A DNA stretch of 64,000 nt from Terriglobia bacterium (GCA_963664115.2 CAXWPJ010000002.1:704001-768000), one strand, 5' to 3'. Positions 40,986 through 59,974 are shown, counted from the stretch's first letter. Translations and numbers: made by a program. The notes: generated by a model not told the origin, from the letters alone.

Positions 40986-41798
40986 ATGATGAATCTCGCC
41001 CTCATTACCGTCTTCACCGCCCTGGCGATTCTCCTTTGCGCAGGATTCCTACACCTGCTTCCTCGTCTGGGCGGTTTCGGGCGCCGCATCTCCGAGTCAA
41101 TGTGCCGCGCCCCGATGCTCGACGTGCTGATCACCTACTTCGGCATAGCCCCACTCGCCGTCGGTCCCATCGTCGGAGGCTGGATCGGGCTGGCCGGCGG
41201 CATCTTCGGTCAGATCAGCGCGGTGCTGATTTGGTCCCTCCTGCACAGCGCGGCCAATCCCCGCGTGCGCCGCGGTCCTCGCATCCACAGGACACTCAAC
41301 CAGATCGTCGGCCCCTGGCGAAATTACACGGCCCTCTGGCTGACGGCGCTGATGGTGCCGATGTTCTGGACCGTGCGTATGATCGAGATCTTTCTCTATC
41401 CTTTGATCCGCGGTCTCGTGCGCTTCCCGAAGTACGACCAAGGCACTTGGGTCTGCGTATCGCGCCAGAAGTTCGACGGCCTCATCAGCCACGACCTGAT
41501 CTGGTGCCTTTACTGCGACTGGATGACCGGTGTCTGGTCGCTCGGCTCGGAGATACTGCGCAACGTCGAATCATTCTGGTGCCCCATCCGATTCTCCAGC
41601 CACGAGAAGTGCGCCAACTGCCAGGTCGACTTTCCCGACGTCGCCGGCGCATGGGTTTCCGCCGACGGAACGATGACCCAGGTGACCGAGGTCCTCAACC
41701 GCAAGTACGATGGCACAACCGATGGCGCCAACTCATGGTTCGGTCACCCGACCAGACTGACAGGCAACGGCGACCCCTCCACGAAACGGGAGTGCTGA
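40986..41798 (+). CDS. Hypothetical membrane protein (cargo)
   Basis: Several TM segments and Cys-rich WCLYCDW and FWCPI motifs; GC-rich coding. Confidence 0.75.
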   Translation: MMNLALITVFTALAILLCAGFLHLLPRLGGFGRRISESMCRAPMLDVLITYFGIAPLAVGPIVGGWIGLAGGIFGQISAVLIWSLLHSAANPRVRRGPRIHRTLNQIVGPWRNYTALWLTALMVPMFWTVRMIEIFLYPLIRGLVRFPKYDQGTWVCVSRQKFDGLISHDLIWCLYCDWMTGVWSLGSEILRNVESFWCPIRFSSHEKCANCQVDFPDVAGAWVSADGTMTQVTEVLNRKYDGTTDGANSWFGHPTRLTGNGDPSTKREC

Positions 41799-42018
41799 CG
41801 CCAGGCCCATCATCGCAGACCCGCTCCCGTCTCAACTCCCCATCGACCTGCAGTTCCGCTCAATCATGAAGTCTGAAAACCTACTTTATCCATAGCTCCA
41901 CCATTGCGGCTTCACACCGGCCGCGCCTTTCAAATTCTGTTATCGAAATTGTCGCGGTAGAAACCGATCGGCAGGTCCTGCGACATTGTGCGCCGCCCCA
42001 CTTCCGATCAACACTAGA

Positions 42019-42104
42019 GATTTCTCAGGACTTGACCTCGAAAATCAGGGCACCGGCACCCGCTCGCGCAGCTCTTGGAACCAGTTCAGGACTATGTTGA
42101 TTTG
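42019..42104. repeat. Partial R plus kinase tail (QINIVLNWFQELRERVPVP*)
   Basis: GATTTCTCAGGACTTGACCTCGAAAATCA followed by the tail. Confidence 0.88.
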
Positions 42105-42296
42105 GCTCGACGCAGGATCAAGAACCTTAGGGCTGGAGTGGTATAACTTGAACGCCGTCTCTTAGCAAAACAGTGCAGTGTGGAAGTAAGGCTGACCAAC
42201 GCCCTCTCAATGACATCTCTCTCCTGTTCCGACACCGACGCTTCTCAGCTTGGCGTACCGGGATGGAACGCCCTTAGTAGACACGACTTTAGTTCC

Positions 42297-42348
42297 TGGA
42301 CGTGAGGTTGCAATCGAGACCCTTCCCGAAGAGTTCGCCAAGGATGCA
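42297..42348 (+). pseudogene. Inverted internal kinase fragment
   Basis: GREVAIETLPEEFAKDA on the plus strand, opposite to all other kinase pieces. Confidence 0.7.
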
Positions 42349-43851
42349 TCGTTAATTACCAACTATCTTCCTGTGTGTCACTTCAGCACGTCACTCTTTT
42401 CAGCCTCCTCGATGTATCGCTGCACATCTTCTTCGAGGAGCAGACGTTCGGACATCAACTGACGTGCGACATCTGTGACAGCCTGGACGTAGCCACCGTG
42501 AGTTCCGTATCGTTCCTCCAAGGACAAACGCGGGTCACCAGCCCCCAATCGCTCGGCCTCGGTCTTCGCAAAGGGAATGCTCTGGCCAGCCCCCTCGCAT
42601 CCGTCGTTGAGCCCCAAACCCTCACGGCGCAAAGCCCAGCCCGTTGTCGTTGCCAGCGGTGCTGCCACAGGTGGCAGCCGGATACCCGCAATTTCGTTCC
42701 CATCCTGATCCGTCTTAGCGACGAAGGATGGATAGGTCGGCCTATCGGCAAACGAGGGTGGGTATTTCGTTATGATTCCTTCGTCAAACGACGGGCCGAA
42801 GTCGAACAGGTAGCGAGTGGTGATAAGACCCGTATAGGTGACACCCGGAATGTTCGGGAATCCCAATGCGGCCTGGGGCACTAGTCCGGTCATTCTCGTC
42901 GATTGGGGCTCCGAGAACACCGCCGTATCATCCGACACTCTTGGTACGCGACTGTCAGGTGGTGCGAGGTCCTCCGTAACCCACTGATCGAGAGCTACGA
43001 ACAGGGCTCGCAGGGCTGGCCCCGGATCGGTCGGGTTGCGGGGCTGTTGACACAAGCCTAGACCTTCAGCTCCTCCCCCATGTTGCATCCCGGCGATGAG
43101 ATAGAACCGAACGTGGTCAGGGTCTGGCAGATCGTTCCCCTCAGTGTCGGTATGCAGCAACGATCCGGCTTTAACCCAATACTCGTTGGCCGAGTTGACC
43201 TCAAACGCTTTGGGACAGGTATTTGTTGCCAGACAACGTTCGGCGCGACCGCCCTTCTTGCCAGACACTGGATCTTCGATCACTGGATAGGCGAATGGGA
43301 AGATTCCCTCCGGGTACAAATGATTCTGGCGATTGTGTTCCGTTCGGGCCGTCTGTGCAAACCGGTAGTTGATGGCCACACCGCTACCTCCGGCCACCCA
43401 GTTCTCTATACCGTCTATGACGCGGCGCCCGGACTCGTCTTCGTTGAACCCAAGCGTCTGGAAATCATTCAGGTAGCGCCCCGGCTGCGAGCGCGCCCAT
43501 GCAAAAGTGTGCTGCACGTCCCCTGCGAGAGGGTTCGGATTGCCAAAGTTGTCCTCCGAGGCATACCGCAGGAAAGATACGAAATCCCGTGTGGCTGCCA
43601 GTCCCAGTCCTGCCACTAGCGGGTCTTTCGCAATGTAGGCAAATTCGTAGATGTAGCCCTGCGCGAGTGGGGTACCAGCCGGCAGTAGACGAATGGTCTG
43701 CTCATCGACGTATTCCCAGTCGCTTCGAGGAACGCTCATTGGCTTATCGTTGAGGAACTGTCTTACTGTGAGCGTCGCCTGCGTCTTGTCCAGTGTGCTC
43801 GCTGCGTAGGCGAGCCGGGACGTCATGGTAGAGGCATCGCTGACACTGATG

Positions 43852-45236
43852 GAGTTATAACCGAATCTGGTGTTTGAGGGATTGAATAAGAGCGGCGTAT
43901 CTGGTTGATTTGTTGTGACAAAACTTCAAAGCAACCATAGGAGATACGCCACTGTGAGCAAGAGTAACGTGAATGGACCGGAAGGTCGAGAAACGATTGA
44001 GGATCCAGTAACAGAACTACTACGAGTTGGGGCACAGCAACTGATCCAACGCGCAGTGGAAGCCGAATTGGCAGAGCTGCTATCCCAGCACGGTGGCCGG
44101 CGAACTGAGACAGGAAACGCCGGGGTGGTACGCAACGGTTATCTGCCGGAACGCGAACTGCAGACGGGATTGGGTCCGGTAACAGTCCAAATCCCGAAGG
44201 TCCGTGCCAAGACGGGCGAAGCTGTGACGTTCCGATCGGCCCTGGTACCACCGTACATTCGGAAGACGAAGTCGCTGGAAGCAGCGGTGCCGTGGTTGTA
44301 TTTGAAAGGCGTTTCCAGCGGCGAGATGGGTGAGGCCCTAAAAGTTCTTGTCGGTCCCCAGGCGCAGGGTCTGTCGGCGAGCACGGTATCGCGGTTGAAA
44401 CAGGTTTGGGGCGAACAGTACCGCCTCGGATGCGAGGAGCGTTTGGATGCAGATCGCTGGGTCTATGTCTGGGCCGACGGCATCTACAGCGGACTTCGGG
44501 CGGAACAAACCAAGTTGTGTGCATTGGTCGTGATCGGCGTGAATGAACGCGGAGAGAAGCGTTTCCTGGCGATCGAAGACGGTGTACGGGAATCGACACA
44601 GAGTTGGCGCGAGGTCTTGTTGAAGCTGAAGTCCCGTGGGATGAATGTTCCGAAGTTGGCCATCGGTGACGGTGCGATGGGGTTCTGGGCCGCACTGGAG
44701 GAAATCTATCCCGAGACACGTCAACAACGTTGCTGGATGCACAAAGTCATGAACGTCCTCAACTGCCTGCCCAAGTCGGTCCAGGCGAAGGCGAAACAGG
44801 CCCTGCACTCGATCTGGCAGGCCGAGACGAAGGCAGACGCCGAGAAGGCATTCGACTTGTTCATTGAAACCTATGAACCGAAGTATCCGAAAGCCACACT
44901 CTGCCTGCAGAAAGACAGAGAGGAACTGCTGGCCTTTTACGACTTTCCGGCCAAGCACTGGCAGAGCATCAGAACGACGAATCCCATTGAGTCGACCTTT
45001 GCCACCATTCGACACCGAACGAAGCGATCCAGAGGTTGCCTGACACGGGATGGCATGCTGCACATGATGTTCAAACTGGGCCAGTGCGCTGAGAACAATT
45101 GGCGACGATTACGAGGATTCGATGATCTGAGCAAGGTAATCATCGGAGTGAAATTCAACGATGGTGTCGAAGCGACACAAGTCGATCAGGCCGCCGCTTG
45201 AATCAATCTCCTAAACACCACTTTTGACAATAACTC
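43852..45236 (+). mobile_element. IS256 family insertion sequence
   Basis: Inverted repeats GAGTTATaaccgAAtcTGGTGTTT and GAGTTATtgtcaAAagTGGTGTTT; 9-bp target duplication ACACTGATG at 43843-43851 and 45237-45245. Confidence 0.95.
43915..45201 (+). CDS. IS256 family transposase
   Basis: RNGY, WADG, IGDG, QRCWMHK and RTTNPIES motifs; the true start may be GTG 43954. Confidence 0.95.
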   Translation: MTKLQSNHRRYATVSKSNVNGPEGRETIEDPVTELLRVGAQQLIQRAVEAELAELLSQHGGRRTETGNAGVVRNGYLPERELQTGLGPVTVQIPKVRAKTGEAVTFRSALVPPYIRKTKSLEAAVPWLYLKGVSSGEMGEALKVLVGPQAQGLSASTVSRLKQVWGEQYRLGCEERLDADRWVYVWADGIYSGLRAEQTKLCALVVIGVNERGEKRFLAIEDGVRESTQSWREVLLKLKSRGMNVPKLAIGDGAMGFWAALEEIYPETRQQRCWMHKVMNVLNCLPKSVQAKAKQALHSIWQAETKADAEKAFDLFIETYEPKYPKATLCLQKDREELLAFYDFPAKHWQSIRTTNPIESTFATIRHRTKRSRGCLTRDGMLHMMFKLGQCAENNWRRLRGFDDLSKVIIGVKFNDGVEATQVDQAAA

Positions 45237-45960
45237 ACACTGATGTACTCGTACGAGGATCCCGTGATTGAGGAACCGTCAGCGTCACGCGCTACTGGCA
45301 CCGTGATTGTCAGGCGGTCGTCACCGGGAGCGGTAGAAGTGTCCCAACCGCCCCACACCAGCGTGTAGCCACGCTGCATGAGGAATCCCTCGCCCGCATC
45401 GGTGGCTGTCGTCGGATCGTTCGTTTCAGGACTGTTGTTAAGCCCCGAAAATCGCTTTCTGCCTCGATTGTTCACTTCCATGAAAAGCTTGTGACTGCCT
45501 TGCCGCAAATCTACGGGCTTCAGGATGTAGACATCGATCGAGTACTCGACCATGCCGTTCGCGTTCCGCGGCGCAAACTCTATATCTGTAATGACTGCAT
45601 TACGCGGATCGGTGGGGTCCACCTCGCCGTAGGCCACGCCTCGCAGCTTCTCGTACGGGCCAACGGCGCCAAACCTTTGGCCTTCAAATGTTGGCGATTC
45701 CACGCTGGTAATCTCTATGCGCACGATGTGTGCTTGAACAGAACTCACGCTGATCACCGTGATCCAAACCAACACCAAAAAACTCACAGCCCCTCTCCGA
45801 TGAGTGCCTGAAGATCCGTCACCTGCAATCAGCCTCGTGAGCATGGTTCCTCCCTCCCGGTAGCGTGCACCGGGGTTTCCTTATGCGAGTCCGACGTCAA
45901 TTTCATCAGCACAGATGTTTCTGCACTGTGGATCCAGATAAGAATAGTCTTGTCTGAACC

Positions 45961-46021
45961 ATCCCATCCTTACCCAAGAGCAAGGCATCTCGTAATGGCC
46001 GAGTTGAGTTCTGGATTTCAT
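45961..46021 (-). pseudogene. Degenerate kinase N-terminal stub
   Basis: MKSRTQLGHYE followed, after a frameshift, by LLGKDGM. Confidence 0.7.
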
Positions 46022-46115
46022 TATTTAATGTGCACCGAAACGAGCCGTGAAAATCTCGGTAAAGAATACTAAGGGAGGAAGTTAGGTGCTATTAAATTCT
46101 CAAACATTAAATTCT

Positions 46116-46205
46116 AAAATCCTGACAAACGACCTTCTCGGACTGTTAGAAAAGGTCCTAAAAACGGGGTTCTCAAGGTCCGAGAAGATGATTTCTCGGG
46201 ACTTA
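46116..46205. repeat. Inverted pair of R copies
   Basis: 46116-46152 resembles the reverse complement of R; 46169-46205 is a forward R. Confidence 0.75.
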
Positions 46206-46231
46206 AGAATGGTGAGATCACTGAGAGAGGC

Positions 46232-46405
46232 TTAAACGTCCCACAAGACGCACTTGTACCAGTCGGTCCGTATTTGCGTTTGGCCGGTGCCGTCTTTCCA
46301 GTATTCGTTTGTCGCGATGGAGAAATTCAGGATGGGTGTCCCGCTTTGGGTGTATCGCAGCTCGGCGTGATGTCCAACGTGTCCGGTCAGTGACACTTGG
46401 TTCAT
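46232..46405 (-). pseudogene. ssb: Truncated single-stranded DNA-binding protein
   Basis: MNQVSLTGHVGHHAELRYTQSGTPILNFSIATNEYWKD...RTDWYKCVLWDV*, the N-terminal half of an SSB OB fold. Confidence 0.8.
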
Positions 46406-46451
46406 GTGTAGAACCCCCGTTTTAGATCCAATTTGTTATTCTGATTGCACT

Positions 46452-46643
46452 ATGACGAAAATTGAATTGATCCAAGATGCAATCGGGCAGCTCGAAACGG
46501 CATTGACCGAGCTGACCAATGCGAAGCAAACCGTCGACTACGACCCGGACAAAAACTTTACAGGGAACGTTGCGAACCGACTGAATGACGCCGCGATATT
46601 CATCAATGTCGCTCTCGCAGATATAGCGGAAGCCCGGAATTAA
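46452..46643 (+). CDS. Small hypothetical protein, possibly of phage or plasmid origin
   Basis: Short helical ORF MTKIELIQDAIG... divergent from the ssb remnant. Confidence 0.4.
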   Translation: MTKIELIQDAIGQLETALTELTNAKQTVDYDPDKNFTGNVANRLNDAAIFINVALADIAEARN

Positions 46644-47034
46644 AGCGGACCATATTCCTTTTAACCACCTGTGCAAAAAAGAGTTCGCAGGATACTCATT
46701 ATGCGACGTTCTCCGGTTCTTACTAAAGCCAGGTCCTTTCCGCGCCCCCGGCTCTTCTTCCGGGCCTATCGAGCCGGGTGGGGGTCAGCCATCTTGATCA
46801 GCCGCCTACCGCGCACGACGGCTTCGACAATCGGAGTAACGCGATTTTCCATCGCGTCCGCCGATAACCGTTACAGACCGAACAGAGCCGCAATCCGATA
46901 CGTTGCGCTACTTTTTTGCTGACATGGCGTCGGATCGAACCGACAAATGCGTGAGGGTGGTTTGCGTGGCTGGCTGGGAGCGTAATTTTGGGACATATTA
47001 ATGGGCCCGATTTTTAGAATTTTTTAGGAATTCC

Positions 47035-47325
47035 AATTCTCAATGTCCGCGAAGATGATTTATCAGGACTTGACCTCGAAAATCAGGGCACTGGCACCCG
47101 TTCCTTGAGTTCTTCAAACCTCTTCGAACCAGGTCTAGAGAGAGACGGTTACTGAATGTTCTGGTCGAGCGGTGCTCCGCTCTGAGAAAAGATGGTGGGG
47201 TTTGTTGGATGCCAGTTATCCGCTGCAAGGACGATACAGGACTTGACCTCGAAAATCAGGGACTGGCACCCGTTCCTTGAGTTCTTCAAACCTCTTCGAA
47301 CCAGGTCTAGAGAGAGACGGTTACC
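47035..47325. repeat. Two tandem R plus kinase-tail units
   Basis: CAGGACTTGACCTCGAAAATCAGGG..TGGCACCCGTTCCTTGAGTTCTTCAAACCTCTTCGAACCAGGTCTAGAGAGAGACGGTTAC occurs twice (about 47064-47152 and 47237-47324). Confidence 0.9.
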
Positions 47326-47685
47326 TGAGAAAAGAATTGCAAAATCCTCGCCGAAGACTGCCCCGCTGTCCCACTGAACAGGACGATCTCGGTCGACCAC
47401 CCCCCCCCCCGAATCAACAATGTGAGGAAAGTAGGTGTCTTCGCTCGGCGGTGCGCCCACCCCCGAGCGGCTGAAATAAGTTGAACTCAGACATCCGCAC
47501 TGCCATCCGGGAACCACGGGACTCTTCATTTCGCGGCCTCAAAAATTTGACGGCCGCGCGGTCTCCAGACCCGCATGTCTCAGAGACTTGACCGCCGTTC
47601 CCTGCGCTAATAGGTTCGTAAGGCAGGCCCGGGCGGCACCAGAATTGAGATTTTGAATTTCCTATAGATTGAATTTCGAGACTTA

Positions 47686-49248
47686 TTAGGCCCCGCCCTC
47701 CAGCGCAGCCTGTTGCTGCATTGCAGCCGGTCCGACGATCCGCTCAAAATCGGCATTCAGCCCCGGCTGACCGTGAATGGGGACATGCGTCGTAACGTCC
47801 AAATTCAGCCGCCTAATGTTGTTATACAACGCAACCGCGTTGGCGCCGACATTTGCTGGTGGCTGTGCACCGGCAGGCGGCGGACTCCAGAGATCCGCGT
47901 TAATCAGAATCTGCTCTTCCGGCAAATAGGCGATCAGCATATCTGCCGCGTGATTGAGATTTTGCACGTTAAAGAGAAGAAGCGTGCGATCTCCATCACT
48001 GATGAAATGCCGGTCCGTGACGGTTTCCAGCGCGACCGGTCCGGGCCCAGTGGTGGCGAGCGGATTCCGGGATAGCGTGTCGGGACTTAAGGTCCGTATC
48101 TGCGACGCAAAGACCGCGTCCCTAAAGAAATCCTCGTTGCTTTCATGCGTAACCACGGTCACGCCGTGAGCGACATAGGTCCGCGCACCGCCTAGATGGT
48201 CCCAATGGTGATGGGTAGTGACTAGATAGCGGATGGCTTTACCCGGAATAAGCCTTTTAATTTCGGCAATCACGGGGAGTGAGCGCGCTTCATTCTGCGG
48301 AGCGTCGACGACGGTGACAAAATCATCGAACTCAATCGCCACGCTATTATGCGAACCACCAGCCATGAGCCACACGCCGTCGGCAACTTCCTGCGCTGCT
48401 ACATTGACCTGTGGCTCCGGCGCGTAGCGTACGCCGTCAGGAACCGTCAGGGCGGCGCCGGCGACATTAGCACTTGCTTCACCTACTTCAAGATTTAGCC
48501 AGTTCATTCCCGGCCGGGCCGTCAACAGATGATCGCCACGGTGGCCGTGAAACAGGAACGGAAACATTATTCCATTGCCGATGTCCTGCCATTCCGCATA
48601 GCGGATCTCTATCTGCATATCGCCCATAACAGGATTAGGAATCTGCGTGATAAGGCGCTCCATCAAGTTTTCGTCGTTGAATTCGCCCGAAACGCGGTAA
48701 CCCATGGTCGTAAATGCGACGACCTTTAAAGTGCGATCCTCGGAGGCCACGTAACGGTCTACGACGGTTACATCGTCGGCTGCCAGCGCCGATTTGATAA
48801 ATCCATGCGGGCTGATTGCGATCATGAATTTGCCAAGCTCCGCAGTTGAAGTGGCTTGCGCAGTGGGTTCTCCGTCGTTGTTCAGCGTCCAGGCATAGTC
48901 GCCGCTTATGAAACCCAAATTCCGCCTTTCGCCGATAATGGGTGATCTGCCGCCGCCGCGCGCGGGATAGTCGCCCTGAACGCGAACAAATTCTTCCCGC
49001 GACGAACCGGAAGAATAATCAATGGTCATGTCGTAGCTCTGCAAGACATGGCGCGGCCAGTCTTCGCCGTCGGCAAAATTCTGTCCCACCGCGCCCATCC
49101 AGCCCGAGCCCGAATATTGGACCGAATTTACCGAACTCGCGCCGATGGCGTTATCCGCCGCTTCCAAAAAGCTTGCTGCATCCTGAGCAGCTGCCGGCCC
49201 GGCCATCAAAGCCGAAGCAACCAGCCATATCCCTAGTTTGTTTCTCAT
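47686..49248 (-). CDS. Secreted MBL-fold metallo-hydrolase (cargo)
   Basis: Signal peptide; SHNS, THHHWDHLGG, HA.DM, AD and PIHG motifs. Confidence 0.88.
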   Translation of the reverse strand: MRNKLGIWLVASALMAGPAAAQDAASFLEAADNAIGASSVNSVQYSGSGWMGAVGQNFADGEDWPRHVLQSYDMTIDYSSGSSREEFVRVQGDYPARGGGRSPIIGERRNLGFISGDYAWTLNNDGEPTAQATSTAELGKFMIAISPHGFIKSALAADDVTVVDRYVASEDRTLKVVAFTTMGYRVSGEFNDENLMERLITQIPNPVMGDMQIEIRYAEWQDIGNGIMFPFLFHGHRGDHLLTARPGMNWLNLEVGEASANVAGAALTVPDGVRYAPEPQVNVAAQEVADGVWLMAGGSHNSVAIEFDDFVTVVDAPQNEARSLPVIAEIKRLIPGKAIRYLVTTHHHWDHLGGARTYVAHGVTVVTHESNEDFFRDAVFASQIRTLSPDTLSRNPLATTGPGPVALETVTDRHFISDGDRTLLLFNVQNLNHAADMLIAYLPEEQILINADLWSPPPAGAQPPANVGANAVALYNNIRRLNLDVTTHVPIHGQPGLNADFERIVGPAAMQQQAALEGGA

Positions 49249-49400
49249 ACCCCATCCTCCCGGCGGATTTTCAATTTTCTGCTGCGGCCTTCCGCTCCTG
49301 CATTACACGGAGACTACTCAACATCTGAACTTTAGCTTACCTTCGAAAGTGACCATTCATCTACTCAATAAAGGGTGTGTGGCGCGCCAGGGCCAAAACC

Positions 49401-49616
49401 TCACGTCATTCCTAGATTGCACGAGCCCTTGCCCGCCTCCCGCAGTCGCTGAGCCTGCTCGCGGTCAAAGATTCGCCGAGGCCGTCCAGAGGGTTTGCCT
49501 TCCTTCCTGGCACGTTCCAACCTGTCGGTGGCGCGGTAGGCCTCGCCCACACCCCCTTTACCGAGTGGGCCGGTGATCTCGTAGGGACCGAGTTTTGTGC
49601 CTCTCGCAAGGGCCAT
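49401..49616 (-). pseudogene. Kinase N-terminal stub fused to a resolvase/invertase-like C-terminal fragment
   Basis: MALARGTKLGPYEITGPLGKGGVGEAYRATD joined to RLERARKEGKPSGRPRR. Confidence 0.75.
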
Positions 49617-49909
49617 GAACTCTCTACCTCACTACTGTCGCTTGTAAACTGAAAAAGCTGGAGAAAGTCTATAGAACGAACGGGTTGGAAGCAACGATTG
49701 GAATCAGCAGGATTCTCAACGTCCGACAAGATGATCTATGAAAGGGGATGTCAAGAGAAACAGCTCCCCGATGGCCGGCCAGACGGACACTTTTGTCGTG
49801 ACAGCCAGCCCCTCTACCGTTATGTGAAGCCCTGGTTCCGGCAATCCGGAGCGAAATCGTACATCTTTAAGACGGTCGATTCAGAAACTGAACAGCATAT
49901 GGGACGGCA

Positions 49910-50045
49910 TGTGCCGACCATGGATCTATCTGAGCCTCGAAGGCTATCGCTGTTTCAGGTCGTGCGAGGGGGGATAGAGATTTAAAAGTGTCCTCTGGAC
50001 GTATCCAGGGACCACATCTTGTGCAGATCCTCACCCTCGATCCTC
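49910..50045 (-). ncRNA. Putative bridge/seek RNA of the IS110 element
   Basis: Two stem/internal-loop/hairpin modules whose loop strands match the target (ACAAGAT, TAAATC) and the donor junction (ACAGCGAT, ATAGATC). Boundaries are approximate. Confidence 0.7.
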
Positions 50046-50105
50046 AGTTGTTCCGACTCCGTCTAACGACTCAGTACGGCTCTACCGGTCACGGATCGAA
50101 ACGGC

Positions 50106-51170
50106 TTATGTTGTCATCCAGCTCAGTTTCTTTGGATCGAACGATTCTCCTTTCTTCCAAAGCGTCAGCACCAGTGCGGCGATCTTACGGGCCAGAGTGA
50201 CCCGCGCCATTTCCTCCCGCATCCCACGCATCTGGAGACTCTCCAGATAAATCCGATACGGCTCGCTTTGTTTTCCCGATGCCGCGGCTGAGAAGAACAC
50301 CGACTTCAATCGCCGGTTGCAGTTCGCATTCAATCCGCGTGTGGCCACCGGTTTCCTCCGTCGCACCACACGTCCACTCTGCATCTCATACTCCGCGCTC
50401 ATGTGGGTCACCACACCCAGGCCACTGTAGCTCCAGAACTGCGGTGTCGTGCGGAATCGGTACGGCGTGTCCACGATGGCGACGATCTGTGCCGCCCGAA
50501 CCGGTCCCAGTTGTGGAATGGTCTCGAGCAGTTTCACCGCCTCATGGTGCCGGCCCTCCACTCGCACCGCTTTTCTGGATTGTTTCCGCAGCAACTGGAC
50601 CTGGTCCAGTTCCGCATACAACCATCGGGCGCGCTGCCTCATCCCCGGCTCGGTCAGCTTCTCCAACCACTGTTCGCGCTGACTCGGCCGATAGACTCCG
50701 TCCTTCGGTGTCGGGATCCCCCGTCCCCGGTATATCGCTTTGATCCGCGACATCACCCGTTGCGTGTCCAACTGGAACGTGTCATAGGCCTGCACCAGTT
50801 GCTTCAATTCTCGCGTCGCTTCATGGCCGTGATACACCGAGCGCAACAGTCCCACCCGCAACAGCTCGGCCAGCTTCCGCGCATCCGGCTTATCCCCCTT
50901 CGACCCTTCTTGCATCCACTTGTTCTGTCGCGGATCGCACACCACCACCTCGCTCACCCACGGCCGGATCACTTCCGATAACCAGCCCGCTTGCGTGGTC
51001 TCCTCCAACCCCACGTGCATCGGCCCACTCAATCCCTCCAGCAGCCGTGTGATACTCCCCGCCTCGGTTTCCACGATCGTTTCAAACACCAGTTTGCCGC
51101 TCCCGTCTCTCACCGCAACCACCGTCGTTGCCTGGTGCACATCCATACCCATATACTTGTCTTGTTTCAT
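50106..51170 (-). CDS. IS110 family DEDD recombinase/transposase
   Basis: MGMDVH, EET, KGDKPDARKLA, TIPQLGP, YSGL and H.SA motifs. Confidence 0.93.
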   Translation of the reverse strand: MKQDKYMGMDVHQATTVVAVRDGSGKLVFETIVETEAGSITRLLEGLSGPMHVGLEETTQAGWLSEVIRPWVSEVVVCDPRQNKWMQEGSKGDKPDARKLAELLRVGLLRSVYHGHEATRELKQLVQAYDTFQLDTQRVMSRIKAIYRGRGIPTPKDGVYRPSQREQWLEKLTEPGMRQRARWLYAELDQVQLLRKQSRKAVRVEGRHHEAVKLLETIPQLGPVRAAQIVAIVDTPYRFRTTPQFWSYSGLGVVTHMSAEYEMQSGRVVRRRKPVATRGLNANCNRRLKSVFFSAAASGKQSEPYRIYLESLQMRGMREEMARVTLARKIAALVLTLWKKGESFDPKKLSWMTT

Positions 51171-51588
51171 CTCGAACGCTCCTTTTCTGGGATCAACGCT
51201 GTATACGTTGATCAGGTTGTTGAGTGAGTCTTCTCTCAACAACCCCCAGTCTAGGGGCGTCCTTTCATACTGCGATTTATCAGGACTTGACCCGGCATCT
51301 CTGTCTCCGCCGACTTCCCCGAAGCCGACTTTTGGGTCGTTAATGCTGCCCATTCCTAAACGCTAGGCGACTACTCATTACCTATGCAGTGAAACACCAC
51401 CAAACCCCTTTGAAATTTCGTCGTTACAAAGCGGCCAGCCCTCAGAAAACCCCCTTGCCCTGCACCTTAGGCTTCCGATAATCTGGCTGCTACAATAACG
51501 GGAGAGTAACCTGCGCTTGCTCAGGTTGACCTAATCGGGCCGAGGGCGCGATCCTTTTCGAGAACCGCGAGAACCGGAGGATTTCATC

Positions 51589-53094
51589 ATGAATTCAAGT
51601 CGAATTCCGCGACGGGACTTTCTGAAAGCCTGGGGAGCAGGAACCATGGCTCTTGCTTCGCCTGCAATGGGGCATTCGCTTCTCGCGGCTCAGGCTGGGT
51701 CGCAGGAAACCTATTCGCGTCCCGTGGGGCAGCGAGAGACGACTGTGGCGGAAGACATGGGGACGTGGATTGCGGCGCTTCGGTATGAGGACCTGCCGCC
51801 GGCGGTCGTGGAAAAGGCCAAGCGTGTATTGCTCGATACGGTCGGGTGCGCGCTGGGAGCGGTGGGTGCCGAACCGGTCCGCTTCGCGCAGCAAGCAGTC
51901 TTTCAGCAAGGGGGTCATCCGAGGTCGACCTTGATCGGGCTGGGCCGCAAAGTTTCCTGCGATCAGGCCGCGTTCCTGAACGGAATGGCGATCCGGTATC
52001 TCGATTTCAACGACTATGCACCTCCTGGGGGTCATCCCAGCATCAACGTAGCGCCGGCGCTGGCGGTGGCGGAAATGCGCAACCTGACGGGCAAGGACCT
52101 GCTGCTCGGCGTCACGATCGGCCACGAAGTGCATACCCGGCTCCTGGACGCCACGGAAGGAGGTTCCCTAAGCCGCGGTTGGGACCTGGGGACCATTACG
52201 ACCAATTACGCGTCCGCGGCGGTGGCCGCCAAACTGCTGGACCTCGACGCGTCCAAGATCGCCCATGCCATGGCGATTGCCGGCGCACACGGAAACACGC
52301 TCCGGGAAGTTCGCCGGGGGGCGATGCTCAGCGGCGGCGGAATGACTCCCTCGAAAGGGACCGCCGACCCCATGTCGGCGCGCAATGGAACCTTCGCGGT
52401 GTTTCTGGCGCAGGAGGGTATGACTTACCCGCTGACGATTCTCGAAGGCGTGTATGGGTTCGGAAACAATGTAACCGGGGAACTGCGAGAAGATATCCTG
52501 CGGAAGCGCACGGGTGATTTCCAGATTCTGCAGAGTGGCACCAAGATGTGGCCCTGCTTCCTCCATGGGCAGGGGCCGATCGCGGCAGCGATCGAGGTGC
52601 ACGGCCAGGGAGTGAATCCGGAAGAGATCGAGAGCATCACGGTACTGCTCAACGGGTCTGCGTATGAGAACCAGCAGGCCTACAACAAGGGTGAAATCAC
52701 GACTCGGGAGCAGGCCGACCATAGCATTCCGTATGTGGTGGCTAGGTCGCTTTTGGACGGTAATGTGAGCGTTGAGGACTTCGAAGAGAGCCGCTTCCGA
52801 GACCCACGGGCGATAGCTCTGGTAAATAAGACCACGCTCCGGTTAGAGCCTGCGCTAACGGTAGGCGCGTACGTCGAGGTAAGGCTTCGGAGTGGGGCAG
52901 CACATCGCTCGGAAGTGCCGCATCCGCCGGGCAGTATCCAAAATCCTGCGAGCGACGCAATGCTGATCGAAAAGTTCATGTCCCTAGCGGAAAGGCCCTT
53001 GGGTAGGGGACGTGCCGAATCCGCCGCCGAGGCACTCCTCTTCGTTGACCAGCTCTCCGAGCTCGGTCCGCTGCTGCAAGTTCTTACATCCTAG
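51589..53094 (+). CDS. MmgE/PrpD family protein with Tat signal (cargo)
   Basis: RRDFL, RYLDFND, GHPS, KMWPC and ADHSIPY motifs. Confidence 0.9.
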   Translation: MNSSRIPRRDFLKAWGAGTMALASPAMGHSLLAAQAGSQETYSRPVGQRETTVAEDMGTWIAALRYEDLPPAVVEKAKRVLLDTVGCALGAVGAEPVRFAQQAVFQQGGHPRSTLIGLGRKVSCDQAAFLNGMAIRYLDFNDYAPPGGHPSINVAPALAVAEMRNLTGKDLLLGVTIGHEVHTRLLDATEGGSLSRGWDLGTITTNYASAAVAAKLLDLDASKIAHAMAIAGAHGNTLREVRRGAMLSGGGMTPSKGTADPMSARNGTFAVFLAQEGMTYPLTILEGVYGFGNNVTGELREDILRKRTGDFQILQSGTKMWPCFLHGQGPIAAAIEVHGQGVNPEEIESITVLLNGSAYENQQAYNKGEITTREQADHSIPYVVARSLLDGNVSVEDFEESRFRDPRAIALVNKTTLRLEPALTVGAYVEVRLRSGAAHRSEVPHPPGSIQNPASDAMLIEKFMSLAERPLGRGRAESAAEALLFVDQLSELGPLLQVLTS

Positions 53095-53313
53095 GGTATT
53101 GCTCGGCACGCCGTTCTGGAGCAGGATGAGATCGACCGCCGACCCGGGTTTCTTTGGGTTTCAACTTGGGCAAAACCTCCTGCGGACGGCGATTGCCCCT
53201 GGGTGACGCCGTTTCGTTTACCGATCCACATGCAACGCCCCAGAAGTCGGCTTCTGGCGAGCAGCCCTAGCTTTAGAACGAGCGGATTGGAAGCAATGAT
53301 TTCAGTCGGCAGG

Positions 53314-53397
53314 TTTCTCAAGGTCCGGGAAGATGATTTCTCAGGACTTGACCTCGAAAATTAAGGCACCGGCACCCGTTCCTTCAGGTCTTCAAAC
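53314..53397. repeat. Repeat R plus kinase tail (FEDLKERVPVP*)
   Basis: TTCTCAAGGTCCGGGAAGATGATTTCTCAGGACTTGACCTCGAAAATTA followed by the tail. Confidence 0.9.
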
Positions 53398-53552
53398 GAG
53401 ACGAGATCCACAGATCCTTTTACATCGTAAACAGATCAAACAGACAACGCTGGCTCGACGCAGGATCGAGAACCTTGTAACTGGATTGGTCTGACTTGAA
53501 AACCGTCTCTTAGCAAAACGGCCTTTTTGTCCGAATTATTCTGACGACGTAC

Positions 53553-53789
53553 ACTCGAAACCATGGATTGCCGCTATGCTATGTTGGGATGATTTAAAGA
53601 AGCGAGTAATCTGGCTTCACGTTCAAATCGCGCTAAACGATCAGCGTCTCTCGCAAACTCTTCAGGGAGAGTCTTGATGGCAACTTCACGACCGAGCTTC
53701 GTATCCTTCGCACGCCACACTTCTCCCATTCCACCCTTGCCCAGGAGTGTGCTGATCTCGTAGTGACCGAGTTTGGTGCCGGGTTCCAT
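53553..53789 (-). pseudogene. Ser/Thr kinase N-lobe stub
   Basis: [39 protein letters not shown]...LNHPNIA, then a 5-bp duplication (CTATG) before AIHGFE; no HRD or DFG follows. Confidence 0.92.
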
Positions 53790-53861
53790 AATCGTGGTCT
53801 TCCAGAACAGTGTTAAGAAGGCTGGGGGCAGTCTATAGAAGGAGTGGGAGAGCAGGCAATG

Positions 53862-53968
53862 AATTCTCAACGTCCGACAAGATTTATCGGGACTTGACCT
53901 CGAAAATCAGGGAACCGGGACACGTTCCTTCAGTTCTTCAAACCAGTTTTGAACGATGTTGATCTGCC
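53862..53968. repeat. Repeat R plus kinase tail (RQINIVQNWFEELKERVPVP*)
   Basis: AATTCTCAACGTCCGACAAGATTTATCGGGACTTGACCTCGAAAATCA followed by the tail. Confidence 0.92.
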
Positions 53969-54155
53969 TCAATGGCTTGGCAGTGCCGTCCGGTGGCAAC
54001 GACGCGGGAAGTACAACCACCAGTTTTTGTCTCGCCCAACGTAACACTACATCGTATCCGCGACATTCCCGCCGTGCGTGTTGCCTCTCGGTATACCGCA
54101 AACCTCGCTTGTTTGACTTATCCGCCCGAGATGTCAAGTTATTCTTGAGCGGGCC

Positions 54156-55664
54156 CTAAAGGCTTCCATCCTTCACAATCGCCTTCGTCGGCGTCGGACT
54201 CCCACGATGAGGATGATACCCGCAACTCCGGCGACTAACCCGACCGGGCAACCAGAACCTTCGGTTCTCCACAAGCGGAGGCACTTCTCCGAAGTAAACG
54301 TAGGCCCGTCCGGTGTTGCCGGGTCCCTCCAGGGCATCGCCATCGCTTTCTCTTGCACCCACGACTACGTTGGCTCGGCCGTCCGCCGAAAAGTCTCCAG
54401 CCGAACCAACCGCGTACCCGAACGAGTCGCCTGGAGCTTCGCCGAAGAAGGTCTCGTCGGCGCGTGCTGCAGCAATGAAGCCTTCGGGGCGATTAACGCC
54501 GGCCCCGCCGTAGTAAATATAGGCAGCGCCACCCGGAGGCACACTTCGAGCCCCAATTATCAAGTCATCGATGCCGTCACTGTCGACGTCGCCAGCTCCG
54601 GCGACCGAGTTGCCGAAGGCATCGTTGTCGTCCGAACCGATAAAGATCGCATCAGCGTCGACGGCAGGGTTTTCCAGCTTGGGAGGGCCATAAAAAAGAT
54701 AGACGCGCCCGGAACGGTCGCCCGCATCGCGAAAGACTGCGGGGTTGTGGGCGGCGCCGACGAGAACGTCCGCAATGCCGTTGTTGTCGACGTCGCCGGG
54801 TGATGCCACCGCATGTCCGAACATGTCTATCGGCCCCTCGCCGGTGAACACGTAGTCTGCGGCCGCGGCGGCTATGTTACCGATAAACTGAGGGCCACCT
54901 CGAAAGATCAAAGCCTGTCCCTCGGCATTCGGTCCGGCTCCCGGGCTGCCCACGAGGACGTCGTCAGAACCGTCACCGTCGACATCACCCGCGGGTGCCA
55001 CCGTTGTACCGAACAACCCCGGCCCGACCAGTTTCACATCGGCGTCCCCGGATTCCAGGTTACCCCGGAGCAGATCGTCATCCTTTCCGCCGAAGAAGAC
55101 CAGCACGCCTTCGCCGTTCGATCCGATAATGATGTCTGCAAAGTCATCGCCGTTCACTGAGCCGGCAGAAGACACAGCTCGACCGAATCCAGCGAAGTCG
55201 TTTCCCGTCACAATTACGTCCGCCGCCCCAGCCTGGATCCGCCCGGCGAGTCGCTCATTCCCGACCCCACCATAGAACAAGTAAGCTCGGTACGGAGGTG
55301 CATTGGCAAAAGTACCGATCAGAACTTCGTCGAATCCGTCGCTGTTCATGTCGCCTGCGGATGCGACGGAAAATCCGAACGCCGTAGCCTCTGGTCCGAT
55401 GAAGACGGCGTCGGCATCAGCAGCCGACAGGTGCGGCGCGCCGGGAACGATGCGCCGACCGTAGAAGAGGTAGACGCGCCCTGAGTTCGGGGCGTCGTCG
55501 TCATTTCCGTAGGCACCGATCAGCAAGTCGTCGACCCCATCACCGTCGAAATCGGCGGCGGCGACAGCATGGCCGAACAGATCACGATCGTTCTCGCCGG
55601 TGATGATGAAGTTCTGGGCGAACGCCGAGCCGCCCACCAAAGCGGCCATAAACACGAGAAACAT
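54156..55664 (-). CDS. FG-GAP/integrin-alpha repeat beta-propeller protein (cargo)
   Basis: About seven FG..V..AGD.DGDG.DD.L.GA repeats; signal peptide. Confidence 0.9.
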   Translation of the reverse strand: MFLVFMAALVGGSAFAQNFIITGENDRDLFGHAVAAADFDGDGVDDLLIGAYGNDDDAPNSGRVYLFYGRRIVPGAPHLSAADADAVFIGPEATAFGFSVASAGDMNSDGFDEVLIGTFANAPPYRAYLFYGGVGNERLAGRIQAGAADVIVTGNDFAGFGRAVSSAGSVNGDDFADIIIGSNGEGVLVFFGGKDDDLLRGNLESGDADVKLVGPGLFGTTVAPAGDVDGDGSDDVLVGSPGAGPNAEGQALIFRGGPQFIGNIAAAAADYVFTGEGPIDMFGHAVASPGDVDNNGIADVLVGAAHNPAVFRDAGDRSGRVYLFYGPPKLENPAVDADAIFIGSDDNDAFGNSVAGAGDVDSDGIDDLIIGARSVPPGGAAYIYYGGAGVNRPEGFIAAARADETFFGEAPGDSFGYAVGSAGDFSADGRANVVVGARESDGDALEGPGNTGRAYVYFGEVPPLVENRRFWLPGRVSRRSCGYHPHRGSPTPTKAIVKDGSL

Positions 55665-56229
55665 GGGGCCTCCTCTGAGTAAAGCTCCGGTAAACCGGAC
55701 CACTGTTATCCGTCCCGATTGCCAGGGCTCCAGACCATCCGTTCTGAACTTCTTTATTTGATTGGTGCCGTAACCAGCGGTGCGTGAAATTAAGCCAAAT
55801 CTCCAGGAAATGCAAGGATTGAACAGTACCCTGAAAACCTCTCTACTGTCTGAATCGCAGAGACACGGACAGGCGCAATTGACGCCACCCCTCCGTTACT
55901 TCTCCACCTACGTCTTCTCCGTAACCTCCCGAAAGCACTTCGGGCACTTCGTGGGTTCTGGACAGAACTTTACGGTTTCGACACTTTGTCAAGAAAGGCA
56001 TCGGGGGTGCTCCAATCACACAGTTGATTCCGTTAACTTTCTCTTTTGGCCGTGGATTTGCAACGAGCCTTTGTGGGTCTTCGAGCGCAGAGCGATCTGA
56101 GAAGCGCAACCCGAACCTATGACGGATACCGAGGGGTTGTCATGAGTCTTCTGCGAGTAGCAAAGGCGCCGGCCGGCACGACACACCGCCAAGGTAGGCT
56201 GCAAACATTTGTGCGCTTATCAAGAGAAC

Positions 56230-57675
56230 CTACGGTGGAGAACGGCGATGCTGGACGTCTCCTCCGTTCGCAAGTTTCGATTTGGCCAAAACGATCAACT
56301 CTTTGAGCCCTTTTCCAAAGATTTGCTTCGCGAACATTCGTAAGCGGAACCGCGTGGATTCTGAGAGAGCGGGAAGCAGGTCTGCGATCCGCACCTCAAA
56401 AACGTCACCCGTCTGGCAGCATCGAATGGCGGTTGCATCGTTCCCATCGCAATCTATCGGCAGCTCCAGTGCAAAGACTAGCTCCAGTTCGGCCTTGGCC
56501 GGTTCCGAGAACTGATATTTTACGCGGACGATGTGTGTTTCCTCTGGGCCGGTTGAGCGCATATTAGATTCTCCAGGCTCATAAGGCATGGAACCGGCGG
56601 AGGCGCGGACGCTGAATTGCGGCCCCTTCTTGTACTCCTGCACGAGCCTGTCCATTTCATGATGAAGTGCCATCAGCAGTCGAAGACCCGCTTCATTGAC
56701 CCGGTCAGGTGTGTGGCGGCCATGGCGCACATCGGTCAGGTAGAGACCCTTGAGATCGTTCAACAGATCCCCGACCTCGGGGGCCAAGGCTTCAGCGAAA
56801 CTGTCTCCAACCAGCTCGACAGCATCGATGGCCCGCTCAAAGACGAAATCGACGAAAGGCTGGTGCGGGCCGCTATTGGCGACGTGCAGACAGGCTAAAT
56901 ATTCCTTTCGCCTGTCCATCAGAATCATCAGGGGGATCAAGGCAGCTCGATAGGTGTAAAAAGATGCAAGAGCGCGGGCAACCCGGCCGTTGCCTCCTGC
57001 GAACGGATGAATCCACATCAGGCTGTGATGAGCATAGGCGGCCTGTAGAATCGGGTGTGCTGCGAGAAAACGCTTACTGTGGAGCTCGTCACAAAGCCTG
57101 TGCATTTCAGCGGACGCCTCATCAACCGGAACGTATACGCGGACACCGTTTGTTGTGACGTGATTCGGATGGTGCTTGTACTCACCTAAAGGAAATCGTT
57201 GATCCTGCCAGCCCAAATCTGTGAGTACCCGGCAAGTCTCCTGGCCGGCACAAAGCTCCTGGTGTAATTTGCGCACCAGGGTTTCTGCTAAAGGGACCGC
57301 TTCAGTCACCAGTTCGAGCAGGTAGTCGTAGCCTCGGAGCTGCGAGTCGATCAGGGCTCGCGTCTTCTCGGATTTCTCGTTCAATCTTGCTTCCCAACCG
57401 GCCGCATGCATGGCAACAGTAATGGTGAAGTCGCGATCAACCTCGTAGAGTCCCTCGACGGCTCCAGTATCAATAGCCGTTGCCCGTTTGACGATGTCCC
57501 GCGACCGCCCGAGCAGCTCCGGAGACTGGTTCTCCAATTCCCTCAGTTTCGCCGTATATCGATCCCAGCGGGTCAGATCAACGAAACACCCCACCCACTT
57601 GTCAAACGTGGATACCGGCTCGTACAAGGCGTCGAGTTTGTGAAGATCTTCCATCGTGCCCTTATCCCTTCCCAA
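56230..57675 (-). CDS. Fic family protein (cargo)
   Basis: HPFAGGNGRVAR motif and an N-terminal TGAVEG inhibitory-type motif. Confidence 0.88.
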   Translation of the reverse strand: MGRDKGTMEDLHKLDALYEPVSTFDKWVGCFVDLTRWDRYTAKLRELENQSPELLGRSRDIVKRATAIDTGAVEGLYEVDRDFTITVAMHAAGWEARLNEKSEKTRALIDSQLRGYDYLLELVTEAVPLAETLVRKLHQELCAGQETCRVLTDLGWQDQRFPLGEYKHHPNHVTTNGVRVYVPVDEASAEMHRLCDELHSKRFLAAHPILQAAYAHHSLMWIHPFAGGNGRVARALASFYTYRAALIPLMILMDRRKEYLACLHVANSGPHQPFVDFVFERAIDAVELVGDSFAEALAPEVGDLLNDLKGLYLTDVRHGRHTPDRVNEAGLRLLMALHHEMDRLVQEYKKGPQFSVRASAGSMPYEPGESNMRSTGPEETHIVRVKYQFSEPAKAELELVFALELPIDCDGNDATAIRCCQTGDVFEVRIADLLPALSESTRFRLRMFAKQIFGKGLKELIVLAKSKLANGGDVQHRRSPP

Positions 57676-57993
57676 CTCTACGACAGGTATCCACCTCTAG
57701 AGAAGAAGCAAAGACTCGGCGCGTCGGCACAACACCTTGGGAGACCCGCATCGCTAATTCCGAGTATTCGACATATTACTGGGATTTTTCGCCGCGACCT
57801 GTAGAGACCTGCCATTCACAGCTTTCCACTTCTGGAAACGGGCGAACGAAGATCTCGTTCTGACCTGACTCATTCGACTGGTAAGCCGACCACGTGGAGG
57901 ATTTCATGGATGGACTCGTCTAGCGTAACTGCTTGGGTCTTTCGTTGGCGCGGTAGCCGGAGTAGGCATCGACGTAGATGGGGAGAGACATTG

Positions 57994-58942
57994 CTAGTAA
58001 TTAGCTGGCATGTCGCATTGCCCAAAGGCTGTCCAGAAAACCTGTGAATCCTCATCCCCTTCCTCAGGAAACTGCTCAACGAGAGTGCGCAAGTCGAGCA
58101 AGGTTTCAGGGGGTCTAGGTGTTAGCCACATCCCGAGTGTCTTATAGTTCCCGCTCGAAGCACGTGGAACATCTATAGCAGCCATGTTGATCTTCGTGTG
58201 ATGCTTCCGGTTGAAATACCCACAAATCTTGCCGTGTAATTGGACTGCGTAGTTGAAGTCACGGTGTTCTGAACTCGCAAGGTCCACCTTACTGCCGTGA
58301 AGCAACAGATTCCTAACACCCTCTCCGTATTTTAGAAGCCTGTCGAACAATTCGTCGTCTTGGACTATTTCCTGACGGATGTAATCCTTGTCCGTACTTC
58401 GCCCACGGCGAGTTGGTGATTGACCAGCTATGGCCTCCAGCGCGCTAATCAGCATCACCAACCGGGTATAGTACGTGGCTGCGTTGGTCTCTTCGCGCAG
58501 GTACCGAAACACATCCCCCTTCTCGTCATAAGTTTCCAAAGCCTCAAGCGATTCACGTTCTTCTTCACGGAAGCCCAAGGATACTGGCCTTCGCTCTGCA
58601 TAAAAGCGGAAGAAGAACGCACCTTCTGGATTCCCATTCTCTCTCTGAATGAACAAAGATTCGTAGTCAGCGCTCGTGTGACACTGCGAAACGAATGCGA
58701 TTTTGTCAACAATCGGGAGTAGTTCGGCACGAAACGCATTGATCGCTTCCTGCGCAGCTAAGGCTTGGACCGTCTTGCGGGCTATCCAACTAGCAGCGGT
58801 GCCGTGGTTGTATTTGAAAGGCTCCCACCGGGCGGTCTCCTGGATTGATCTGCCATGGCCTGAACACAAAGCCGTGGAAGGTGAACTGTTCCCAAAGATT
58901 TGAGATTGTGCTGATTCGGTGTTCGATAACGTAATCGTTCAT
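57994..58942 (-). pseudogene. HEPN-like (RX4H) protein interrupted by a 31-nt IS256 fragment
   Basis: SALEA..G and VRNLLLHG motifs; removing 58792-58822 gives a continuous 305-aa ORF from ATG 58942. Confidence 0.65.
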
Positions 58943-59224
58943 GTTTGGGATCCCCACGGAAAGTCATTGCTACTCTGGTTGGTGTGCCTACTGGCCTAAC
59001 CTGAACGTTTGCAATCGTGGGAAAGTCCGTCTCAAAGTTGCATGCCCCAACTGCCCCAGTTGCCCTAACAATCTCTATCCCGGTGAAGTTCTGTAAGCAA
59101 ATACGGAATGGAGTGGAAATGCTGGAACATCTAGGACACTTAGGGCACTCCGCTTGCGGTCCGTCATCGATGAGTCGTTTCGGTGCTAATTCGGGATCGA
59201 AATAGACCTTAGCGAAACGCCTTA

Positions 59225-59442
59225 CTGCAGACGGGATTGGGTCCGGTAACAGTCCAAATCCCGAAGGTCCGTGCCAAGACGGGCCTGTGACGTTCCGATC
59301 GGCCCTGGTACCACCGTACATTCGGAAGACGTCGCTGGAAGCAGCGGTGCCGTGGTTGTATTTGAAAGGCGTTTCCAGCGGCGAGATGGGTGAGGCCCTA
59401 AAAGTTCTTGTCGGTCCCCAGGCGCAGGGTCTGTCGGCGAGC
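59225..59442 (+). mobile_element. Internal IS256 transposase fragment
   Basis: Matches about 44158-44382 except for 4-nt and 3-nt deletions; no IS ends. Confidence 0.9.
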
Positions 59443-59643
59443 CGGTATCTCTGGATAAATATCAAAGAACGCTTCAATGCTCTGAGCGAGTTGCTTCTGG
59501 ATGCTGCTTTGGTCTCCGTGAAGCAAGTGCATGCTGACACGTGCCGTCTTCCCATCTTTCAATTTAACAATCGCATCCTCGACACCCTCCAGCTCTTCGG
59601 CTGGCAAAAGCCGCAACCCGTAAATCAACGCTAAATCGGCCAT
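59443..59643 (-). CDS. Small hypothetical protein (67 aa); stop displaced by the IS256 fragment
   Basis: RBS GGAGG upstream; MADLALIYG...IYPEIP; removing the fragment places TAA immediately after. Confidence 0.6.
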
Positions 59644-59935
59644 ATCTTTTCCTCCATCTCTGCAACCGGTGCCGCGACGCAGCCTCCTCCAGTCTAATCG
59701 TGCTTGAACGTTTCAATGTATGTGATCGATGCGTTTTCGGAAATCACCGAGACAGGCGAGTTCGTAAATAGAATAAACGACTTACTACCGAGGCACCTCA
59801 CCGCGCCACACCCGAGACACCCGAACCAGTCATTTCGCCCGACTCGATAGCGACTCGCCCTACCGTCTCGGCTCGAAGTTGTTGGTTTTAGGGGATGACT
59901 CGACGGACTCGGTTGGTTCTGGCCCGGCGATGTGA

Positions 59936-59974
59936 AATCTCAATGTCCGAGAAGATGATTTCTCAGGACTTGAC
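59936..59974. repeat. Repeat R
   Basis: TCTCAATGTCCGAGAAGATGATTTCTCAGGACTTGAC. Confidence 0.9.

Follow-up and report, generated by a model that had tools for sequence, protein, structure and literature searches.

An IS1111-group element from a Terriglobia bacterium with a predicted two-loop RNA that likely guides it to a dif-like repeat

RNA-guided recombination has already been described for the IS1111 family. According to the portion of PMC11187229 concerned with ISEc11, ISKpn4, ISPst6 and ISPa11, these elements contain a DEDD transposase followed by a long non-coding region, subterminal inverted repeats with extensions of 7 and 3 nt and a guide for the top strand that precedes the one for the bottom strand, and they insert into repeated sites in fixed orientation and without target duplication, with natural reprogramming among relatives. 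When judged by these published descriptions, the same features characterize an element that we have studied in a 64,000-nt stretch of the genome of a Terriglobia bacterium (GCA_963664115.2, CAXWPJ010000002.1:704001-768000), which we refer to as the window. Compared to the elements of that account, its inverted repeats are perfect over 8-9 bp instead of the usual 11-13 bp, which is still inside the range of 7-17 bp given in the relevant part of PMC11208160, its transposase of 354 residues slightly exceeds the range of 330-350, the likely catalytic serine is found in the context H-M-S-A/S instead of SG or TG, and the target is a dif-like repeat (termed R) instead of attC or REP sequences. The best matches in sequence and fold among solved structures are the bridge recombinases IS621 and ISCro4, yet with an identity of 20-24%. 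As they are described in the sections of PMC11208160, PMC11208158 and PMC13626964 that bear on this comparison, both share with the prediction for our element an RNA with a target loop followed by a donor loop, each composed of stem, guide, hairpin, guide and stem, and a 14-bp target organized as 7+2+5, whose 2-nt core is read by both right guides. In our case, the predicted RNA is encoded downstream and not upstream, and the core is GA, which constitutes a real if small departure, since the second position is an almost invariant T in the IS621 orthologues covered in that part of PMC11208158. In the searched part of the PMC11208160 supplement, we found no match to the RNA scaffold, and the RNA has no match in Rfam either.

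In the openly accessible literature, which was mostly screened at title level, no IS1111 or IS110 element aimed at a dif-like site is reported. Elements of the IS1202 subclass are of the DDE type and are not known to use an RNA guide. Those that target XerCD sites resemble our element in homing to Xer-type sites but belong to a different IS family and, in the portion of the account concerned (10.1101/2022.12.17.520857), abut these sites, whereas the element described here would insert by base pairing inside the 6-bp spacer. The nearest analogue of R itself are the islands of pdif and chromosomal dif modules of Acinetobacter, which, in the passages of PMC12907356 describing them, share inverted arms, a 6-bp centre, numerous copies bounding unrelated cargo and an organization in linear arrays. 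R is unlike these modules in its almost exclusively direct orientation, its one fixed spacer and its nearly symmetric arms of about 14-18 bp.

The element is well supported as a real, intact and readable new member of the IS1111 group. The initial annotation had called it a new programmable recombinase, which is correct with respect to the member but not to the family, whose mechanism is known. Its coordinates are summarized in Table 1, where the copy of the GA core at 51274-51275 is counted within the 1541 bp of the element and where the extensions beyond the inverted repeats encompass 7 nt on the left and 3 nt on the right. The genome contains seven copies, all encoding an identical protein, and one solo end. 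Differences among the six intact copies amount to 0-6 nt, and the IS has therefore spread recently; the seventh is split by an IS1380. As the initial annotation had recognized for the window, the IS splits a copy of R, and this applies to all seven copies, which share the same position and orientation, with no duplication of the target in any of them or in comparison with an exact empty twin of one site. An IS1380 is located at one and the same CTAG of the left end of the IS at two loci (G000 C9:938023-939900 and C12:159400-161204), and at the second of these the solo end is all that is left of the IS. A right-end remnant of a related IS1111 element is found at C12:531160-531495 of the same genome, with guides AUAAGCG-GU that fit its own flank ATCAGCG-GT. 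A truncated copy with 98% identity in another genome (G123, L066/L180) has no intact R arm at its flank. The relatives of the IS that are named in our search belong to the Acidobacteriota (Terriglobia), and its DNA is present in sequencing runs labelled as sponge metagenome.

Table 1. Features of the element, its target and the surrounding arrays. Positions refer to the window unless stated otherwise.
Feature	Position	Strand	Remarks
Complete IS1111-group element	49735..51275	-	1541 bp; 7 genomic copies and empty twin of one site
Interrupted R, left part	49712..49734	+	ends with ACAAGAT (49726-49732) and core GA (49733-49734)
Interrupted R, right part	51276..51290	+	TTTATCAGGACTTGA
DEDD transposase/recombinase	50106..51170	-	354 aa; Pfam DEDD_Tnp_IS110 and Transposase_20
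Right subterminal inverted repeat	49738..49745	-	CCTTTCAT; 3 nt from end
Left subterminal inverted repeat	51261..51268	-	ATGAAAGG; 7 nt from end
Predicted target-binding loop	49965..50039	-	closing stem 50027-50039/49965-49975; inner hairpin 49990-50012
Left target guide	50015..50022	-	ACAAGAUG; fits ACAAGAT and first core base
Right target guide	49979..49985	-	UUAAAUC; complement of GA-TTTAA
Predicted donor-binding loop	49915..49962	-	stem 49958-49962/49915-49919; hairpin 49933-49945
Left donor guide	49947..49955	-	AAACAGCGA; 5/7 and core against ATACTGC-GA; weak
Right donor guide	49923..49929	-	AUAGAUC; exact complement of GA-TCTAT
Predicted -35 box of circle-junction promoter	49749..49754	-	TTGACA
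Predicted -10 box	51267..51272	-	CAGTAT; 17 nt from TTGACA in circular form only
Standard R target			ACAAGATGATTTA; ACAAGATGATTTAA; as opposed to short variant ACAAGATTTA
Empty short R variant	53867..53896	+	single GAT; kind of site the IS does not occupy
Empty co-oriented R copies surrounding element (cluster)	40637..62588	+	starts 40637, 46173, 47040, 53318, 53867, 59940, 62556
Second-class R-like sites	G000 C2:320067, 750143 (window 46143), 90872; C9:912953, 1230803; C11:19652; C12:509751; C10:234672
IS91-type elements	G000 C1:92884, C1:108637, C2:196409, C12:36312, C12:159160, C12:486945
Kinase tails/stubs near R	53352-53400, 53574-53870, 49401-49616, and genome-wide
Distant-clade loci	L048-L057, L084-L090, L130-L178

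The transposase exceeds the Pfam cut-offs for both the N-terminal RuvC-like DEDD domain (PF01548, 54.6 bits) and the C-terminal Tnp domain (PF02371, 36.1 bits), whereas its score of 122 bits with the NCBIfam IS110 model NF033542 is under the cut-off of 140. Profile alignment and Foldseek, the latter based on a structure model of moderate quality (pLDDT 64), both identify ISCro4 and IS621 as closest solved structures. D10, E57, D93, D96 and S258 are the likely catalytic residues, as they are invariant or almost so among 27 homologues and as the acidic ones align with those of ISCro4. The assignment of S258 as candidate catalytic serine is based on its spacing, since it is located eight residues past G250, as in the motif G--P----SG. 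All 27 sequences compared contain this serine. In contrast to this motif, it is followed by A or S and not by G, the HMM alignment places the SG of ISCro4 elsewhere, and the respective loop is unresolved in the model.

A stretch of 371 nt downstream of the transposase gene is non-coding, compared to 105 nt upstream, and we consider it very probable that it encodes a two-loop bridge/seek RNA that guides the recombinase to ACAAGAT-GA-TTTA(A). The segments ACAAGAT (50016-50022), TAAATC (49979-49984), ACAGCGAT (49946-49953) and ATAGATC (49923-49929) of the initial annotation and its hairpin at 49933-49945 were all found in place, and the fold prediction contains the two loops. The helices that had been proposed are conserved, if slightly smaller (49965-49975/50027-50039, 49990-50012 and 49915-49919/49958-49962). 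On the transposase strand, ACAAGAUG, which complements the top strand, precedes UUAAAUC, and the guide for the top strand is thus found 5' of that for the bottom strand. When folded as a single sequence, the region is no better than its shuffled versions (z-scores of -1.70 for 370 nt and -1.04 for 138 nt), whereas a scaffold of two stem-guide-hairpin-guide-stem modules emerges from the consensus of 41 homologues, in which 96.5% of the cells pair, compared to 33-52% in slid controls. Compensatory changes are found in 12 of its 22 pairs, a number reached in none of 500 shuffles and in none of the slid controls, in a test that favours the structure, since the latter was derived from the same alignment.

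Evidence for guiding comes from the relation between target guides and flanking sequences in homologues. Of 151 loci gathered by their transposase match, 141 gave a profile match and 136 had both scaffold anchors; among the latter, 91 offered a clean right flank, after seven with unclean ends were dropped, and 103 a left flank. With groups defined by 80% protein identity, the left target guide matches 5.61 of 7 flanking bases compared to 2.90 after shuffling (28 groups, 91 loci), in both cases scored as the best of three registers, and the right target guide 3.68 of 4 compared to 1.24 (25 groups, 103 loci). Neither value was reached in 10,000 shuffles, grouping at 70% identity gives the same result, and the correspondence falls beyond positions -7 and +5. 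A first version of this test, in which clusters of similar guides collapsed to 3 and 9 groups (left guide 66/10,000), was abandoned in favour of the grouping by protein identity. The target loops thus covary with their targets. The initial annotation had named a lack of such covariation, and copies outside R-like sites, as grounds for refuting its reading, and neither was found. Natural reprogramming is also evident in multi-copy relatives of the same genus or family, whose guides match their own targets, as illustrated by CCAAGTT-GA-CAGT in G064, TATAGGC-GA-CTAT in G117 and ATACGCG-GT-ATTA in G165.

Within the genome, the element prefers copies of R that match its guides. The left 7-mer is perfect in 6 of 7 occupied compared to 30 of 126 empty copies, TTTA is found at 8 of 8 right ends of occupied copies compared to 31 of 126 empty ones, and the rare form TTTAA, which completes the right guide, at 4 of 8 compared to 3 of 126. 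Perfect matches to both guides are present at 6 of 7 occupied and 4 of 126 empty sites (Fisher p 2e-7, with the caveat that duplicated segments make the sites partly dependent on each other). The exceptions are thus a single copy of the IS in AGAAGAT and four perfect copies of R that are empty. Two segments of the R arrays (G000 C6:24229-45130 and C11:1097-58407) are duplicates in opposite orientation, and the IS is present in only one of them. A scan of viral contigs with the target-loop motif returned one chance match, without the IS.

By analogy to IS621 and ISEc11, the element would be excised as a circle with the junction ATACTGC-GA-TCTAT, which would form a TTGACA-17-CAGTAT promoter from which the transposase gene and the RNA would be transcribed. 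The target loop and the donor loop would be bound by separate recombinase dimers. In the target loop, the left guide would pair with the bottom strand and the right guide with the top strand, with an overlap at the core. Cuts beside GA would proceed via serine-linked intermediates to an insertion without duplication. Guides that are aimed at an abundant intergenic repeat would likely provide many harmless landing sites. The predicted promoter, in the form TTGACA-17-CA(T/G/A)TAT, recurs in 53 of 71 predicted homologous junctions, and a promoter scan of the linear element detected nothing over chance. Neither the circle junction nor joints of the empty site were seen in the genome assembly or in eight of 20 runs, whose assembled contigs drop rare forms, so that this absence carries little weight.

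On the donor side, the predicted pairing is firm for the right guide only. The last three bases of this guide track the core and the first donor base in homologues, whereas the left guide matches 3-6 of 7 bases in relatives and displays no covariation. The initial annotation, which had allowed one mismatch to the circle junction across both donor guides, was thus too optimistic for the left one. As a consequence of this weakness, the donor loop may act chiefly via its right guide, or the ends may be specified by the inverted repeats. Handshake pairing between the loops is not established here, as an ungrouped signal of 24 of 54 compared to 13.8 loses its significance upon grouping (0.48 compared to 0.37, 637/10,000).

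The uneven quality of the donor guides leads to the main rival of a two-loop mechanism, in which the target loop alone would guide, as a short processed RNA like in ISEc11, recognition of the element's ends would be left mainly to the protein and the inverted repeats, and the role of the donor loop would be partly vestigial or structural. An 82-nt RNA containing the target part only supports movement of ISEc11 in the experiments covered by that part of PMC11187229. Two metatranscriptome assemblies from RNA libraries contain unstranded contigs that extend over the target loop, and also over the gene, and their ends at or before 49979 provide a weak hint in the same direction. Conversely, the stems of the donor loop covary in helices 4 and 5, and the concerted change of the right donor guide with the core and the first donor base requires selection on donor pairing. 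We thus regard this alternative as unlikely, and prefer a two-loop RNA as guide. In one contig of the RNA library of run X20 (depth 3.4, from a related strain), position 50180 is joined back to 49979, where the right target guide ends. Circularization or religation of the RNA could be the cause, as could a chimera of the library, and as a single contig it was given no weight.

R consists of inverted arms around a 6-bp spacer; 136 sites match a strict pattern, and 111 of these have GATGAT as their spacer. A looser pattern brings the count to about 170 sites, and 16% of the genome is found within 5 kb of one of them. Of 71 pairs of neighbours no more than 7 kb apart, 69 have the same orientation, and the spacing between neighbours has a median of 2.1 kb. 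The copies in these arrays bound unrelated genes, as in a cassette platform of the Xer/dif type. In the family, R is detected in 8 of 35 genomes and is abundant only within the genus, with a looser form in 12 of 151 genomes of the class. A second class of R-like sites, with a spacer that is mostly (T/G)GTCGT, is usually positioned back to back with a GATGAT site at a distance of 30-120 bp. The genome encodes XerC (C9:863627) and XerD (C2:150503), and its dif candidate ACGTCGCATAA-TGAGTA-TTATGTCAAGT (C2:108145, minus strand), located near the GC-skew maximum of C2, resembles R only in part, with ACGTC..AA shared by the left arm and a different right arm.

Several other residents of the arrays are associated with R. 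Two tyrosine-recombinase elements (L015 and L016) are fused to it exactly at spacer|TT, pointing to a crossover that does not depend on the spacer. An IS91-type tyrosine-recombinase element, with a protein of 293 aa and an IS91 transposase gene following it in L007, starts next to R at half-sites of the dif-like kind. It is present in six copies, of which at least five begin some tens of bases away from an R-like site. The six tyrosine recombinases located near R, which are identical and were considered as candidates for the enzyme of the array, turned out to be genes of these IS91-type passengers. In 54 of 117 cases, R directly follows the 3' tail of a gene of the Ser/Thr kinase type (...ELKERVPVP), and N-terminal stubs of kinases often begin just beyond R, as if many of the cassettes were hollowed-out kinase cassettes. 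The array also holds two genes of MBL-fold hydrolases (window 47686-49248 and 60776-62452), with scores for beta-lactamase families far under the cut-offs.

From these sequence features, R likely serves a gene-cassette array as a site at which a tyrosine recombinase acts on double-stranded DNA. In other Acidobacteriota, a distant clade of this IS family (45-49% identity, 31 of 136 loci) targets the dif-like sequence TCCGnnnA-N6-TTATCAGGAC at another position of the spacer. We tentatively propose, at somewhat less than even odds, that R is the double-stranded crossover site of an undescribed Xer-like cassette platform of an acidobacterial genus, and that RNA programming against such sites arose in this IS1111 lineage on two or more independent occasions, namely in the window element, with a switched GA core within the spacer, and in the distant clade at the other spacer position. 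Descriptions of such arrays in Acidobacteriota were not found in the openly accessible literature, again screened mostly by title.

The initial annotation had also proposed that the recombinase could rearrange the array by recombination between copies of R. Many guide-compatible sites are indeed directly oriented, as seen in the neighbour pairs described above, and a pair of IS copies might conceivably remove the DNA that separates them. We nevertheless found no sign of such activity and consider it quite improbable, since IS621 fails at recombination between two targets, according to the respective part of PMC11208158, since copies of R that match both guides are few, and since large R arrays exist in relatives where no intact copy with such guides was found.

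Still less probable is a recognition of R by its structure, as a hairpin of the REP or attC kind, or by an R-bound protein, with the guide match being secondary. R is an imperfect palindrome, and all copies of the IS in this genome reside in it, as would be expected in this case. However, the IS chooses rare guide-matching variants that are poorer as hairpins, and near relatives whose guides differ have inserted at sites other than R. Moreover, the variable positions of both arms assort independently, with 40 of 117 being complementary compared to 39.3 after shuffling, which speaks against a REP or attC hairpin. When arms are compared across a cassette, complementarity is weakly increased (28 compared to 22.2, 421/10,000).

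The register of the predicted RNA-guided insertion follows from the junctions, which read ...CCGA(C/G)AAGATGAT|CTATGAAAGG, corresponding to AAGAT-GAT, on the left (7/7) and ...CCTTTCATACTGC|GATTTA, corresponding to GAT-TTA, on the right (8/8). Deletion of 49735-51275 restores a standard R, and for the copy at C11:1097, the rebuilt empty site was found unoccupied at C6:45130-45011 with an identity of 120/120 nt. The insertion thus involves neither a duplication nor an extra GAT, and the target is the standard R, ACAAGAT-GA-TTTA. Among 71 homologous loci where both junctions are known, 65 share two nucleotides at each junction and 6 a third one. Of the ten loci with a GA core, a third shared base is present at the window element only, and the core is GA and not GAT, with the subsequent T being found by coincidence in target and donor alike. 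Between clades, the core dinucleotide is GT, AT or GA, and covaries with the right target guide and the right donor guide (GT/AC, AT/AT and GA/TC). Which of the junctions keeps the core of the target is mixed in the six discordant loci (4 vs 2). Against this background, the reading of the initial annotation, with a short target ACAA-GAT-TTA, a 3-nt GAT core and one extra GAT at the occupied site, which draws on the GAT at both junctions, on its letters in both guides and on a short variant that does exist at 53877, is practically untenable, as all seven occupied sites rebuild standard R and one of them has an exact empty twin, as the two R copies bearing ACAAGATTTA are both empty, as a third base is so rarely shared, and as an extra donor GAT would set the -10 box 20 nt from TTGACA. 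The guide segments had thus been chosen correctly but in a different register, with the left guide in fact reading seven nucleotides and the first core base of standard R. Its next base, a U, is mismatched with the A at the second core position in all GA-core relatives seen, where the left guide keeps GU over the core, shifted by one base along the scaffold, and from which we infer that it is a relic of a GT ancestor.

With its mechanism known, the element itself is no surprise. As a recently spread and clean example, it allows its target, core and guides to be read without ambiguity, and its clade supplies dozens of cases in which guides were reprogrammed naturally, in an IS1111 branch that has received less study. 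The GA core, to which the right guides have changed to match while the left guide has not, is of specialist interest, as is a target that resembles a dif-like recombination site. If our reading of R is true, the element would act as a guided parasite by which cassette sites are disabled, with its GA core inside the spacer, and this core would widen the range of those usable by bridge recombinases. The R arrays pose the larger question and are a more novel lead than the IS, and they deserve a study of their own.
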